Of a stretch of 64,000 nucleotides of DNA, positions 1 to 23,135 are shown piece by piece. This DNA is from a virus. The stretch is taken from positions 11,405-75,404 of IMG/VR virus record IMGVR_UViG_3300024346_000041; one strand, written 5' to 3'. Each line of letters opens with the position of its first letter. Positions within the stretch are counted from its first letter, which is position 1. The notes under the pieces are model-generated. The model was not told where the DNA came from, searched no databases, and was given only the letters and a program-made list of their open reading frames with translations. Made by a program: the position numbers and the translations under genes.

Positions 1-462
1 AATCCAATCGGCTGCAGCTTTAACTTCGCCAGAGTTACGCAAAGGGTAGCTTCTAGACTTGTTACCGTCTTCAAAGTTAACTACCATAGCGAAGTCAGAG
101 TCAGACAAGTCGTTCTCAGAATGTGCTCTGAGGGCTGCGTGCTTTTCTACAAGGCTGTCGACGTCTGCTCGGATTCCAAAGTAGTCAGCAGCTTTAAGTA
201 TTCGTGACTTGATTACAGAAGCCACCTTGCCAAGAGACTGTTCTTGGTCTAAAAAGTAAGACATTGAAACGTATGTTGCAGGCGAGCTGTGGCATGGGAA
301 CTTTAAAGTTCTAGTGTCGCCATAAACGTTAGGAGCTAGGTTGCCTCCTTGTCCTGTAATGTCCGACGTAGAAGCTGACTTAACAAACTCAGGAACTTCG
401 TAAAGCTTAGTCATACTATGCAACCCTACTCCAGCTCCATCATTAGATTGGTCTAAGATCAT
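1..462 (-). CDS. hypothetical phage protein, runs off the left edge (possible DUF6582-like repeats)
   Basis: Manually translated open frame MILDQSNDGAG...PEFVKSAS...KFPCHS...RSYPLRNSGEVKAAADWI, with no stop before position 1; not in the ORF track. Confidence 0.7.
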   Translation of the reverse strand, partial: MILDQSNDGAGVGLHSMTKLYEVPEFVKSASTSDITGQGGNLAPNVYGDTRTLKFPCHSSPATYVSMSYFLDQEQSLGKVASVIKSRILKAADYFGIRADVDSLVEKHAALRAHSENDLSDSDFAMVVNFEDGNKSRSYPLRNSGEVKAAADWI

Positions 463-2953
463 GGCAAATACTCCGATTAGTTTAAACTTCCATGCCGGTG
501 TTAGTTGGAACAAGGTGATGTCTATTCTAAACATCAAACCTAGTAGCAGCGCGCTACCAATTGAAATACCTTGCGCTTTCTGCCCAAGCAATCTTACCAT
601 ATATGACGATTACTCCACAACAGGACAATGGTTTTACTGCAAATCATGCCATAAGTCTGGAGACATGATAGAGCTTATGGCTGGAAAGCTTAAAATAACT
701 GTTAGTGAAGCCATTGCAGCGCTAGTAGCTAGCGGGGATATAGATGACTCGCCAGCTAATTACGGTAAAAAGGTACAAGACCTCTTAATACGAACAATAG
801 GCATGAGAGCCAAAGTACTTGAGTTATGGGAAAGGTGTAAAGAAAACAGCAAGAATATGCTACCAGACCACAGGGTCATAGCAGCTAAGATGGGGCTAAA
901 AATAGGTCATAACTGGGAAACGCTAGGAAGCACTCTTGTAGGGTTTTGCAATAAGCTAGACGTAGATAAAGCCCTTACTATGTCAAACAACGGGCATGAC
1001 CACGTAAACCTAGGAAACAACCGAACATTTACAGGAGAAGGATGGGACGAGGTATGCGTAATACCAGCCTTTGACATGCCAGGAAGAATAAAGACGCTTG
1101 TACTAATAGGAAACCTTGCTAGTCCAGAACTAAGAGTAGTGTGCAGGCACATCTCTTATAAGCTGTGGGGACCACACGACAATGAGTGCGGAATGCTATT
1201 CCTTGAAGAAGCATTAAGATCAAACCATACTAACATAGTTGTAAGCGGAGACATGGTAGACACTGTAAGACTCGCCTTAGACTATGTAGACAGGCACAAC
1301 AGTTTTCCACCTATACTAGCCATACCTGAAGACGAAGCAAGGCTGTCGGATGCATGGAGAGCGCTAAGCTCTGAAAACAAAATTATTACAGTAGTAGGTG
1401 AAAAAGCTGAAACACTGTCAGCGTCAAGCTCTGCGATAAGAATAGCTCAAAACCCAGGGTCTTGGGAGGCTGGATGGATGGGACCCTCAAAGTGGATAGC
1501 TAAAGTACATGCAGCTGGCGTTGTTAAAAAGAAAGTGGAGACGTCTCCACTGGATGTAGGTTGGGCAAGAGTAACTTACAACGGAGTTAGTTACGAAGAA
1601 AGACCAGACGGAATATACTGCAAAGAAAAGCTAATGTGCGATGCTATTCTTAAAATAGACAAGATAGCCATAGAAGGTTCTAAGAACTACTACACAGGAA
1701 GAATAAAATGTGGAGGCTTAGAAGCTCCGTTTAAAACTAACATGACTGCTATAGACCAGGCATTCTCAAAGTGGATTAAGGCATTCTGTATTAAAAACGA
1801 TATGCAACTGCCAGTATGTAACAATGGGTACGCTAAAGTCGCAGCAAAGATAGCTCTGCTTTCTAAACCTCCTGATAGAGAAGTACTTACCGCTGTAGCA
1901 GCAGAGAGGCAAGACATAGAATACAACTTCTGCAAGTTTGAAATAAACTCAAAAGGTGAAGTAATAGACATAAACACCTATAGAAAGCTTAACGGAACTG
2001 AATGCTTTATTAACGAGCCTATGACAGCATTTGAAAAAGGAGCCCTGTCAGACGAGAAGTCTGCTCTAGTATGGGCTGTAATAATACCTTGCATGGCTAA
2101 CGCAATAGCCAGCAAGATAGGCTTAGCTACGGTAGGAATAGGGGTAGACCCAGAATCTTTTGAAGATATTAAATTTATTGGAAATAAACTTGGATGCTAT
2201 ACGAATAAACTTACAGGACCAGTATTCACCAAGTCAGTCATATCTACTACATTATCTGACGAGACTAAAAGCACATTACCTGTAGTAATAGCTCCAGATA
2301 AACCAGACGCTCCTATTCAAAGGCTTGGAGTAGAAAAAGCTTCAGGGGCTAGAAACTGCATAATTCCAATGGACTACATGGCCCTACTTGGTTGCAGGAC
2401 CATATCTAGATGGGTATACCTAAAGCCAAGCGCCGTAGAGATAACCAGAGACACTGAATCAGCTTTAAACAAGCTTGCGCTAAGCTTTCTATCTTGGATG
2501 GCAAAAAGCGGTTACAAGACGGCAGGGTTCGATTTAATACACAAAACAGTTAATGCTTTAGAAGAGTGGTGCAACGCAAACAAGATAGCCACTAGCGGTT
2601 TAATCATGGGAGCTACCATGATAGATTCAGACCTGTCAAACAGCCTAAACAAGTCGATAACAAACTCGTTCACTGCTCTGTGTGGTAAATTTAGCAATAT
2701 GGGTTACTTTGAAAAGTCATGTAAGCGTAAGTCAACAAGAGTGGTTAAGTTTGGAGAATCTATGTGGGTAGAGTGCAGAGAGCTATTTAATGCATGTAAA
2801 GCTCACAACGTACCTCTACTTGAACCAAGCAGGCTAGCTCAAGCACTGTTAGCTACAAAAACAATACTAGACTACGCTAACAATCCAGACACAAGAATAC
2901 CTTGCTGGGTGATAGACCCAATTATCTGGGATGAGTGGTCTACCAAGCTTTAG
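461..2953 (+). CDS. primase-like multidomain protein (CHC2-type Zn finger, degenerate DnaG/TOPRIM-like region, unknown C-terminus)
   Basis: CAFC...FYCKSCHKSGDMIELM resembles the primase Zn-binding domain; IPAFDMPGRI and IVVSGDMVD resemble degenerate DnaG motifs. Confidence 0.55.
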   Translation: MANTPISLNFHAGVSWNKVMSILNIKPSSSALPIEIPCAFCPSNLTIYDDYSTTGQWFYCKSCHKSGDMIELMAGKLKITVSEAIAALVASGDIDDSPANYGKKVQDLLIRTIGMRAKVLELWERCKENSKNMLPDHRVIAAKMGLKIGHNWETLGSTLVGFCNKLDVDKALTMSNNGHDHVNLGNNRTFTGEGWDEVCVIPAFDMPGRIKTLVLIGNLASPELRVVCRHISYKLWGPHDNECGMLFLEEALRSNHTNIVVSGDMVDTVRLALDYVDRHNSFPPILAIPEDEARLSDAWRALSSENKIITVVGEKAETLSASSSAIRIAQNPGSWEAGWMGPSKWIAKVHAAGVVKKKVETSPLDVGWARVTYNGVSYEERPDGIYCKEKLMCDAILKIDKIAIEGSKNYYTGRIKCGGLEAPFKTNMTAIDQAFSKWIKAFCIKNDMQLPVCNNGYAKVAAKIALLSKPPDREVLTAVAAERQDIEYNFCKFEINSKGEVIDINTYRKLNGTECFINEPMTAFEKGALSDEKSALVWAVIIPCMANAIASKIGLATVGIGVDPESFEDIKFIGNKLGCYTNKLTGPVFTKSVISTTLSDETKSTLPVVIAPDKPDAPIQRLGVEKASGARNCIIPMDYMALLGCRTISRWVYLKPSAVEITRDTESALNKLALSFLSWMAKSGYKTAGFDLIHKTVNALEEWCNANKIATSGLIMGATMIDSDLSNSLNKSITNSFTALCGKFSNMGYFEKSCKRKSTRVVKFGESMWVECRELFNACKAHNVPLLEPSRLAQALLATKTILDYANNPDTRIPCWVIDPIIWDEWSTKL
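1534..1551. repeat. dispersed palindrome AGTGGAGACGTCTCCACT
   Basis: Exact 18-bp palindrome inside a CDS, read as VETSPL. Confidence 0.95.
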
Positions 2954-9938: not shown

Positions 9939-10601
9939 ATGAACGAGCCACAGTACGTAGTAGTAGAATATTATGAATCTGATAGAGGAGGTAAGCCTGG
10001 TGATAAAGGAAATAAGCTAGCTATTCATAGATTAGAAAATGGAGAAGTTGCAGCCGCTGAAGACGGCGCTCCTGAATCACAAGAAGAAGCTTTGAGAATG
10101 CTACAGGCCTTTCACAGGCCAATATACAAATCGATAGACGTTGCTAATGACGAGTGCGACAACGTTCTAGAGTATGCAGGCGATGGAGACGTCTCCACTG
10201 ACGAAGCTTTTAAAGAAGCTAAGTACGAAGTGGAAACCACTATACCCAACATGCTTATAGGTAACATACTAAAAAGCATTCCAACTGGAACTTATCACAA
10301 GCTAGTCCTAGTGGAGTCTTCTAAGCTAAAGTGGTTTATGAAAATTGTTAGCTTCAGAAACTGCGGGGCAAAGGTAAGTGACGAGCTCAAAAGACTTGGA
10401 ATGAAAGTTCCTGACCCTAAGTACTGGGTAGAGTGCTTTATATACAAAACCAAAGAAAAAGAAGAAGGCTTGGACTATGTAGGTAGCTGCTTAGTTGGCA
10501 AAGAGCTAACAGAACTGCATCTTAGTAAATACGCAGCTACAGGAGACGAGCTGTTTAATGACGAGCTATGGGAGGATAACCGTGCCAAAAGTAAAAACTA
10601 A
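9939..10601 (+). CDS. hypothetical protein
   Basis: AAGGAG RBS; contains a palindrome copy at 10184. Confidence 0.7.
   Translation: MNEPQYVVVEYYESDRGGKPGDKGNKLAIHRLENGEVAAAEDGAPESQEEALRMLQAFHRPIYKSIDVANDECDNVLEYAGDGDVSTDEAFKEAKYEVETTIPNMLIGNILKSIPTGTYHKLVLVESSKLKWFMKIVSFRNCGAKVSDELKRLGMKVPDPKYWVECFIYKTKEKEEGLDYVGSCLVGKELTELHLSKYAATGDELFNDELWEDNRAKSKN
10184..10197. repeat. dispersed palindrome core TGGAGACGTCTCCA
   Basis: Inside a CDS, read as GDVST. Confidence 0.95.
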
Positions 10602-10665
10602 ACGTAGACCTAAAGTAAAGGTAAAACCATTAACTAGAATCAGGCGGCCCTCAAAGGCCGCCTGA
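10582..10665 (+). CDS. 27-aa highly basic peptide (not in track)
   Basis: GGAGG-N6-GTG; MPKVKTKRRPKVKVKPLTRIRRPSKAA. Confidence 0.4.
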   Translation: MPKVKTKRRPKVKVKPLTRIRRPSKAA

Positions 10666-10684
10666 CTCATTGGAGGGTATTGTT

Positions 10685-11188
10685 ATGTTGACTAGACTGA
10701 TACTAGCTAGCGTAGTTGTATTGTTTGTATCTGCAAAACCAAGCAGTGCAGGCTGAGGCAGCTCAGCATCATCAGCCAGTTGGGCTGATAAAAAGTTGAC
10801 GGTGGTTGACATAAGATACATGCAGATGCAGGTAGCATCTATAGATAAGTCTAATTCTAAGCCTATGGTAGAGCTAGCTATGAAGTCTGCTGACTTTAGA
10901 GTTAAGTCAGCTGGCTGCATACTTGCTAGAAAGTTTAAAGATGAATACCTAGAAGAGCTAATAGAGGCAGTAGCTGATGATAGCGAACTAGTTAGACAGG
11001 CAAGCAGGGAAAGCTTGATAGTCTTGGCTGTATTATTAAACAATAATAAAAAGTCAGGGTCAGTAGATTTTGGCCCAATCCCTGGTGATAAAACAATGGC
11101 TGGAGCTTGTGCCAGCCAGACCATGTGGAAAGCATGGTTTGCACAAAATAAAGATAAGTTAAACAAACAAAAATCAAAGGAGCAATAA
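10685..11188 (+). CDS. secreted HEAT-repeat protein with an in-frame TGA at codon 24 (candidate selenoprotein, or nonsense allele)
   Basis: GGAGG RBS, ATG 10685, signal peptide MLTRLILASVVVLFVSAKPSSAG, TGA 10754-10756, in frame with track ORF 10796..11188 (LIEAVADDSELVRQASRESL...DFGP...WKAWF). Confidence 0.6.
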
Positions 11189-11404
11189 ATGAGCAATATG
11201 AATGGAGACGTCCTATACAAGCAAACTCAACTGTCGAACAATCCGACAGTTGAGTACCCCTCGAAAGTCGAGCTTACAAAAAATACCAAAGGGTACACGT
11301 GGACTATCTGCCTCAGAGGCAACGATGGTAACGAGCAATCAATGATAAACCGTATGGAAGAACTTAATAAAGAAATGTTGGCTAAATTTAAAGGAGAGCA
11401 GTAA
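11189..11404 (+). CDS. hypothetical protein
   Basis: AAGGAG RBS; SKVELTKNTKGYTWTI. Confidence 0.65.
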   Translation: MSNMNGDVLYKQTQLSNNPTVEYPSKVELTKNTKGYTWTICLRGNDGNEQSMINRMEELNKEMLAKFKGEQ

Positions 11405-21998: not shown

Positions 21999-23135
21999 AT
22001 GAAAAATCTTATTAATAATGTTTCTTTGAATTCAAAGCCTTTGGCAGTAGTTACATCTGATTGGCACGTTGCACTTAACGCTTGGAAGAAGTTTCCAAGT
22101 ATAAAAGGCGATGCTGAATACTCTCTTACCCAAATAGTTGATATGGCTATAGGTCTTAACGTACCGTTGATAGCGGCTGGTGATTTGTTTGACATAAAGA
22201 ATCCTGACTCTTACAGCATTCACGTTGTTTCAAATCAGATGGCAAGAATGTATGAAAAAGGATTACCAGTATACTATGTGCAAGGGCAGCACGAGATGTC
22301 AGATCCTACTTGGCTTAGTTTGTTTAAAGGTTGTGAGAATGTTCATAACAAGCACTTTAAAATAAAAGGAGTAGACTTCTTTGGTTACGACTATTTCCTT
22401 CCTAAGTCTGTTGAAGACTCTTACAACAGATTTAAGCCTGCCGACGTTTTAGTTACTCATCAAGTTTGGAGCGAGCTTCTCCCTCATACAGGACAAGAGT
22501 TTTGTTGCTCTTACTCGTTAGTAGAGCACAACCTTAAGTACAAGGCCCTCATAAGTGGAGACTTTCACTCACACTTTGTGTCAGATGTTAACGACATGAA
22601 GTTTGTATCCCCAGGCAGCATATGCCTTCAAGACTTAAAAGAATCTTGCAACAAAGCAGCTTGGATTATGACTGAAGACCTTGGGTTTGTATCAGCACCT
22701 TATAAGACAAGGCGACTAATTCAGTCAGTAATAAACTCAGAAAGCGACCTTCACACTATGGTAAAGGTTGCTGAAAAAGTTGAGTCTGACGACATGCCTA
22801 ACGACATAGGACGGCCTATATTTAGGCTACGTTACTCTACTAAGTTAGATAACGTTAACGCAGCTATAACTTCAGCTTTTAAGGACAAGGCTCACGTGGA
22901 CCTTGTGCCTATAATTGAAGAAATAGTTGACTTGCCATCAGTAGCTTCTGACTTGGACAAGCTAGTAGGATCTTTCGATATAAACTCGTCATTTCATGAG
23001 TCTTTAAAAGACTTTTGCGATGTTACCGAAAGAAGCTACAGCGACCTTATAAAGCTATGGTCTAGTAGGTCTGTGGAGGACTTAAGGGGAGAGTTAGATA
23101 ACATGCTTAGTGACATAAAAAGTGGTGGAACTTGA
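21999..23135 (+). CDS. sbcD: SbcD/Mre11-like metallophosphoesterase nuclease
   Basis: SDWH, AGDLFD, GQHE, GDFH and PGS motifs. Confidence 0.85.
   Translation: MKNLINNVSLNSKPLAVVTSDWHVALNAWKKFPSIKGDAEYSLTQIVDMAIGLNVPLIAAGDLFDIKNPDSYSIHVVSNQMARMYEKGLPVYYVQGQHEMSDPTWLSLFKGCENVHNKHFKIKGVDFFGYDYFLPKSVEDSYNRFKPADVLVTHQVWSELLPHTGQEFCCSYSLVEHNLKYKALISGDFHSHFVSDVNDMKFVSPGSICLQDLKESCNKAAWIMTEDLGFVSAPYKTRRLIQSVINSESDLHTMVKVAEKVESDDMPNDIGRPIFRLRYSTKLDNVNAAITSAFKDKAHVDLVPIIEEIVDLPSVASDLDKLVGSFDINSSFHESLKDFCDVTERSYSDLIKLWSSRSVEDLRGELDNMLSDIKSGGT

Follow-up and report, generated by a model that had tools for sequence, protein, structure and literature searches.

Introduction

Does a phage gene whose reading frame is interrupted by a single UGA, directly after its signal-peptide part, encode a selenoprotein? 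Cellular genes and a small number of animal viruses are known to use selenocysteine (Sec), and our literature search found no paper describing a bacteriophage selenoprotein. The gene in question lies in a 64,000-nt stretch of phage DNA (hereafter the window), which derives from a 75-kb IMG/VR virus record rated 36% complete and encodes a large terminase subunit. A sequence-only reading of the window had proposed that the gene starts upstream of the open reading frame (ORF) called there, runs through one in-frame TGA that is followed by a hairpin, and relies on the Sec machinery of the host to yield an exported HEAT-repeat protein. We consider it highly probable that this UGA undergoes programmed recoding of some kind. 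Within that broader conclusion, we lean, with modest confidence and on comparative sequence evidence, towards decoding of the UGA as Sec by host SelB/SECIS-type insertion, which would make the gene one for an exported selenoprotein.

Sequences and relatives

Six DNA-read records carry the gene, i.e., the window and five others. L001 and L002 are IMG/VR relatives of the window with 93% amino acid identity. L006 is a 1.9-kb metagenome contig whose orthologue is 62% identical to the window protein and which has two downstream genes in common with the window (synteny). L017 and L018 are records of 39 and 116 kb, rated by CheckV as 9% and 24% complete, whose homologue is ~30% identical. A record of the L018 type that reaches 116 kb and yet is only 24% complete points to a very large phage, much larger than that of the window. 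A near-identical relative of the window, G001, spans 190 kb and is rated 92% complete. The Cys-type homologue discussed below comes from L027, an IMG/VR record of a 275-kb phage from the same lake sample as L001. In addition, three other public sequencing runs (X3, X5 and X15, the last being a lake metatranscriptome library) were used.

The following searches were negative: GenBank phages searched by DNA and by tblastn gave no match to it, a PHROGs search with the protein gave none, genome contigs searched with A7 and P0098 gave none, and neither did viral contigs searched with A6, A7, A10 and P0021. Applied to the neighboring genes, PHROGs returned nothing beyond a DNA-binding protein and the terminase. 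The L017/L018 records (G003, G004) have a GC content of 55% and carry tRNA-Met and tRNA-Glu (L020 1203-1274 and 13371-13443); a tRNA with anticodon UCA is absent from them. On the − strand of L018, the frame 461..2413 joins across two TGAs under table 4.

One reading frame across the UGA

The features of the gene in the window are as follows.

10672..10676, + strand: Shine-Dalgarno sequence GGAGG, 8 nt before the ATG, read directly; the same in L001 and L002
10685, + strand: start codon ATG, which opens the 23-codon signal-peptide part
10685..10753, + strand: signal-peptide coding part, 23 codons, ending ..S-S-A-G; same build with diverged sequence in L006 and L017
10754..10756, + strand: in-frame UGA, proposed selenocysteine codon, residue 24; same column in all six DNA records
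10757..10819, + strand: linker codons 25-45, from the UGA to the first in-frame ATG; translated only with UGA readthrough
10771..10789, + strand: SECIS-like hairpin with a 7-bp stem and the loop AGUUG, which starts 21 nt past the UGA
10802..11185, + strand: HEAT-like alpha-helical repeat domain, residues 40-167, with the conserved motif DFGP...W..W
11186..11188, + strand: TAA stop; the frame is open from the TGA onward for 143 codons

The start proposed in the sequence-only reading, an ATG at 10685 with a GGAGG ribosome-binding site and a clean signal peptide, was recovered as claimed, and so was the single in-frame TGA after the signal peptide. The signal peptide has one Arg and an 11-residue hydrophobic core with a mean Kyte-Doolittle value of 3.3, and the signal peptidase I site is likely to lie after the Ala of ..S-S-A-G. 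The TGA stands in the context A-G-*-G-S, encoded by GGC-TGA-GGC. The ORF called under table 11 (10796..11188) begins at a TTG which is ATA in the orthologue of L006.

The TGA occupies the same column in the window, L001, L002, L006, L017 and L018, over identities from 93% down to ~30%, an outcome in favor of the earlier reading, which had proposed this check. It is also unchanged in contigs covering the codon in runs X3, X5 and X15, with no TGC, TGT or TGG, so that three independent runs confirm the base itself. Sequencing error and a recent nonsense mutation are ruled out by this conservation together with the independent runs. In X15, a 928-nt contig compared with window 10600-11250 covers the whole gene in an L001-like variant with the TGA intact; as DNA carry-over is possible, this contig is a weak hint of gene expression and cannot show transcription.

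The gene of L006 consists of an ATG, a 23-codon signal peptide ending ..S-K-A-G, the TGA, and then G-S-N-N-S-S-A-S-W-A-D-K-K; its final TGA overlaps the ATG of the next gene, showing that TGA is a working stop there. In L017 and L018, the signal peptide ends ..L-E-A-G and is followed by the TGA, 38 codons, the domain and a TGA stop. Thus, signal peptide, UGA, linker and domain stand in one frame in three divergent lineages. Over the 21 linker codons, comparison of the window with L006 gives pN 0.24 and pS 0.60, the domain having pN 0.22. No in-frame start codon occurs between the UGA and the first ATG in L006 or L017, and no conserved ribosome-binding site was seen before the internal ATG in the window and L006. 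The homologues without the TGA are continuous proteins that open with a signal peptide. The gene is one continuous, conserved reading frame across the UGA.

Two further ideas about this region were dropped. A ribosomal hop across the stop between the two Gly codons (GGC-TGA-GGC) is ruled out by L017, where the codon after the TGA is AAC, and extra synonymous-site conservation of the 5′ part relative to L001 was left unused, the 98% identity there not being distinct from that of nearby bins.

Three other features of the surroundings were recorded. Upstream of the ribosome-binding site, and past the TAA (10599-601) that ends the preceding gene, a 10-bp G+C-rich hairpin with the loop CUCAAA lies at 10640-10665. 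L001 and L002 have the same stem but a different loop, and the lack of a following U-tract means that the hairpin is not a classic terminator. Inside the small gene at 11189..11404, a 14-bp inverted repeat (11225-11255) is terminator-like on the − strand and also follows the TGA trinucleotide at 11199. On the − strand, a 189-codon antisense ORF (10651-11220) extends over the full length of the gene; given the homologues and the confident fold of the + strand product, this ORF is in all likelihood spurious.

The hairpin after the UGA

According to the bSECISearch consensus, the apical loop of a bacterial SECIS lies 16-37 nt from the UGA and has a G among its first two bases. In the window, a perfect 7-bp stem (ATCAGCC/GGCTGAT, 10771-77 and 10783-89) begins 14 nt past the TGA, exactly where the sequence-only reading had placed it, and the hairpin folded alone has −10.4 kcal/mol with a z of −3.7. 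It is also kept in L001 and L002, and in L006 it recurs with 7 bp, −9.7 kcal/mol and the loop AGUUG unchanged and again 21 nt away. The fourth stem pair is A-U in the window and U-G in L006, both changes being synonymous and at third positions. The hairpin is conserved with a compensatory change, this covariation being a single pair in a single comparison. How readily such a structure arises by chance was assessed with set limits (at least 7 perfect bp, a G in the first two loop bases and a loop 13-37 nt past the TGA), under which a comparable hairpin follows 17 of the 2182 TGA trinucleotides in the window (0.8%).

In L017 and L018, an unrelated 10-bp hairpin with the loop GUUU begins 3-4 nt after the TGA. 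However, the loop of this first L017 hairpin lies only 13 nt past the UGA, i.e., outside the 16-37 nt range, which counts against Sec. A second hairpin in L017/L018 has 5 bp of G+C and the loop GGUC, which lies 35 nt past the UGA. By this consensus, a loop at 16-37 nt with an early G is found in the window, in L006 and in the second hairpin of L017, and all three loops (AGUUG, GUUU and GGUC) contain GU. In the Cys-type L027, no structure follows either Cys codon (−1.6 kcal/mol, z +0.6). A hairpin of the right kind is thus present in each TGA lineage and missing in the Cys form of L027. A bulged U as in E. coli fdhF is found in none of the hairpins, which also counts against Sec, and no Rfam family matched at permissive E-values. 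Two other structures in the window were set aside, namely a small hairpin that contains the TGA itself and is not conserved in L006, and a third hairpin at 10795-10810 that is absent in L006.

A bacterial SECIS lies directly downstream of the UGA and has an apical loop with a conserved G (PMC1794560), and the consensus models for bacterial SECIS elements are loose (PMC12013277).

Residues of homologues at the UGA column

A profile search of 1.84 billion representatives returned 53 homologues, which fall into three groups. In five clusters (P0015, P0022, P0025, P0029 and P0125), a W is printed at the UGA column, in the contexts ..K-A-G-W, ..Q-A-G-W, ..K-A-E-W and ..S-A-G-W. All 14 full-length W forms come from contigs of at most 5.4 kb, whereas 12 of the 16 truncated forms of the same clusters, which start past the column, come from contigs of 6.4-91 kb (Fisher p 2e-5, Mann-Whitney p 3e-5). 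Since W appears only on short contigs and truncated calls on longer ones, these W are probably TGA as well, i.e., a TGA that the gene caller's table-4 model probably read as W on short contigs. If so, the TGA would be conserved in eight lineages.

The phage homologues without the TGA carry CxxxxC, CC or CxxC in the same linker, and two of the W forms read W-x4-C-P, in parallel to C-x4-C-P. Seven distant homologues (high-GC and Gln-rich, one of them on a 110-kb contig) have a signal peptide ending ..A-Q-C-x-H-G-G, in which the Cys lies two residues after the signal-peptide Ala and thus matches A-G-U, in a short region aligned by position only. The pairing of TGA with Cys, which had been suggested as a check of the Sec proposal, is therefore seen as a Cys at the equivalent place in distant homologues. 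It resembles the TGA/Cys pattern by which selenoproteins are recognized, with the Cys forms aligned by position rather than by a robust alignment. No Cys form was found among the close relatives, the Cys forms all being distant, and a word search with residues 1-60 alone came back empty, so that the close subfamily has no recorded Cys or W form. Since L027, with its C-x4-C-P, is from the lake sample of L001, Sec-type and Cys-type versions would coexist in one habitat.

Some members of the high-GC, Gln-rich group have N-terminal segments rich in Met, His and Cys, a hint of metal binding. In three distant homologues (P0047, P0050 and P0059), such segments are very rich in these residues, with M-G-M-C and H-H-H-H runs; they resemble copper- or metal-binding motifs of periplasmic proteins and could be a clue to the role of the N-terminal Cys/Sec.

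Selenocysteine or another reading of the UGA

The main rival to Sec insertion is programmed low-level readthrough of the UGA by a near-cognate tRNA, mainly that for Trp, with the hairpin possibly helping. It would be selenium-free, with a low and constant share of the ribosomes reading on to yield the exported protein, as for the A1 protein of Q-beta. UGA is the leakiest bacterial stop codon, the phage is without Sec genes, the database homologues are printed with W at the column, and a conserved UGA with a hairpin suits a readthrough signal as well as it suits a SECIS. However, the W forms are confined to short contigs, with truncated forms on the long ones, and TGG, which is one transition away and would be expected if Trp were tolerated, occurs in none of the six DNA records. 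Moreover, the distant homologues have Cys at the site, not Trp, and termination at the UGA would leave nothing but a signal peptide, whereas in known readthrough genes both products work. We regard near-cognate readthrough as rather unlikely. Within recoding, Sec is preferred because the codon is always TGA, TGG was never verified although it is so close, relatives carry Cys, and a hairpin follows the TGA.

Alternatively, the UGA could be a true stop, so that a 23-residue hydrophobic leader peptide would be made alone, as an upstream ORF or a small membrane peptide, and the HEAT-like protein would be a separate cytoplasmic product of re-initiation or of an internal start, with the hairpin being regulatory. 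Gene callers annotate the locus in this way on long contigs, with products of 120-155 aa, and two candidate starts, TTG 10796 and ATG 10820, are present downstream in the window. However, the 21-38 codons from the UGA to the ATG show synonymous changes and conservation at the protein level, with no start in L006 and L017, the TTG is not kept in L006, the internal ATG lacks a conserved ribosome-binding site, and a lone signal peptide makes little sense as a product. Because the homologues without the TGA are continuous signal-peptide proteins, the fused protein is the ancestral design. A true stop is, in our view, improbable.

TGA is a normal stop elsewhere in this phage, as the sequence-only reading had stated: it ends 10 of the 68 long + strand ORFs in the window, including those at 23135 and 45917. 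ARAGORN found no tRNA genes in the window or in the 190-kb G001, and in that relative no further split gene was convincing; its other TGA-split ORFs were rejected, being a glycosyltransferase preceded by non-coding sequence and a frame on the antisense strand. Phages with a reassigned codon are expected to show many in-frame TGAs, TGA rarely used as a stop, and a suppressor tRNA, and the window shows none of these traits. Genome-wide recoding is excluded. Although recoded phages exist and the gene looks broken under table 11, reassignment of TGA (to Trp or Gly, genome-wide or in late genes), a decaying pseudogene or an assembly error is hardly credible, since TGA ends those ORFs and also terminates this very gene in both L006 and L017, the 92%-complete relative is devoid of tRNA genes and hence of a suppressor tRNA, the gene is the sole convincing split gene in 190 kb, the TGA recurs in six assemblies and three further runs, and purifying selection acts on both sides of it.

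The proposed selenoprotein and its decoding

From the comparisons above we infer SelB dependence, Sec as the inserted residue, export, the cleavage site and the role of Sec, each set out here in conditional terms. The segment 10685-11188 would encode one exported protein of 167 residues, comprising a cleavable signal peptide, Sec24, a short Ser-rich linker and the HEAT-like domain, so placed that Sec would probably be the second residue of the mature protein. Host SelB and Sec-tRNA(Sec) would decode the UGA, and the hairpin 14 nt downstream would recruit SelB as an in-ORF SECIS of the bacterial type. The phage would contribute the mRNA signals only; a search of five phage records turned up neither tRNA-Sec nor selA, selB or selD in any of them. 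Since just a 23-residue signal peptide would be made without Sec decoding, the amount of exported protein would depend on the selenium status of the host. The UGA, the hairpin and the Cys of distant homologues support the earlier proposal that the phage uses the host's Sec machinery for an exported protein, a proposal that we keep conditional. The alternative put forward in that reading, export made dependent on selenium, would follow from the same mechanism. As a guess, Sec may serve as a reactive selenol, i.e., a redox group or a metal ligand, at the free N-terminus of a periplasmic protein-binding module.

Sec-competent hosts are plausible. Some planctomycetes have complete sets of Sec-insertion genes (PMC4807772), and the Atlas clusters that look like the protein are mostly from Planctomycetota. 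The taxa of these look-alike clusters are no more than a hint of a planctomycete host.

The proposed HEAT repeats held in part. AlphaFold2 gives a confident all-helical repeat model of six helices, with a mean pLDDT of 82 and values above 90 for the greater part of residues 40-160, and HEAT_2 is found in the nearest Atlas clusters. However, the match to Pfam HEAT_2 (PF13646) reaches 17.4 bits at an E-value of 0.005, below the gathering cut-off of 27.7 bits, so that the protein falls outside the family as defined by Pfam. A Foldseek search against the PDB gave no hit with E ≤0.001, the best rows being alphaRep and MTH187 with E-values above 0.1. The helical-repeat fold is common to the phage protein and to HEAT_2 and PBS-lyase HEAT-like proteins (alphaRep and MTH187-like folds); unlike HEAT_2 proteins, the phage family is marked by a DFGP...W..W motif of its own and by a Cys/Sec segment at the N-terminus.

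A lipoprotein processed by Lgt and LspA, with a modified Cys or Sec, was considered and rejected, as the sequences depart from the lipobox L-[AS]-[GA]-C, in which the modified Cys is preceded by Leu or a different hydrophobic residue at −3 and by a small one at −1. The TGA and W forms have S, K, E or Q at −3; at −1, the Cys forms have Q and P0025 has E. The resemblance to a lipobox is limited to the A-G before the UGA.

Relation to known systems and significance

The closest parallel is with bacterial SelB/SECIS genes, of which E. coli fdhF is the archetype. Like them, the phage gene has an in-frame UGA within a conserved ORF and a hairpin directly 3′ of it, the loop has an early G (here GU) at 21 nt, the UGA is conserved, and other homologues have Cys. 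We note several differences. First, the phage gene is phage-carried and comes without Sec machinery of its own. Second, the Sec would adjoin a signal-peptide cleavage site instead of being part of an oxidoreductase active site. Third, the phage hairpins are without the bulged U, and the L017 hairpin lies nearer to the UGA than the consensus allows. As far as found, the protein family is new to the selenoproteome.

Among viruses, the glutathione peroxidase homologues of the molluscum contagiosum and fowlpox viruses are UGA-Sec genes that rely wholly on host machinery. The phage gene resembles them in being virus-encoded and in leaning on the host for Sec. However, the eukaryotic-virus genes are captured host genes with a eukaryotic SECIS in the 3′-UTR or the ORF, whereas the phage gene has a bacterial-type hairpin in its coding region and encodes a non-enzyme helical-repeat protein. 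Phage genes whose full product needs UGA as a sense codon are a further parallel. The A1 protein of Q-beta arises by insertion of Trp, and the long and the short product both work; in recoded phages, which reassign TGA or TAG in late genes, in-frame stops are numerous and suppressor tRNAs usual. Here, in contrast to both, the question is of a single codon of a single gene in a phage without tRNA genes, and homologues carry Cys.

Even with tRNA-Trp as the decoder of the UGA, a readthrough signal that is deeply conserved and linked to a hairpin would be unusual for DNA phages. Returning to Sec insertion, the fuller proposal would be that exported selenoproteins form a family in large aquatic phages, with Sec at mature residue 2 ahead of a HEAT-like binding module, made by SelB and tRNA(Sec) hijacked through the phage's own SECIS hairpins and in selenium-replete, Sec-competent hosts only, in which the N-terminal selenol would be a periplasmic warhead or metal ligand; in our judgement the case for this full picture is evenly balanced. 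If true, this would be the first bacteriophage selenoprotein family, and the bacterial-type selenoproteome would gain an exported family that is not enzymatic. Gene callers would systematically truncate such genes, all the long-contig homologues found here being miscalled. Phages would then exploit the most specialized decoding machinery of the host with an RNA signal of ~20 nt, and these uncultured large phages would be restricted to Sec-decoding hosts, so that the gene would be a marker of host range.
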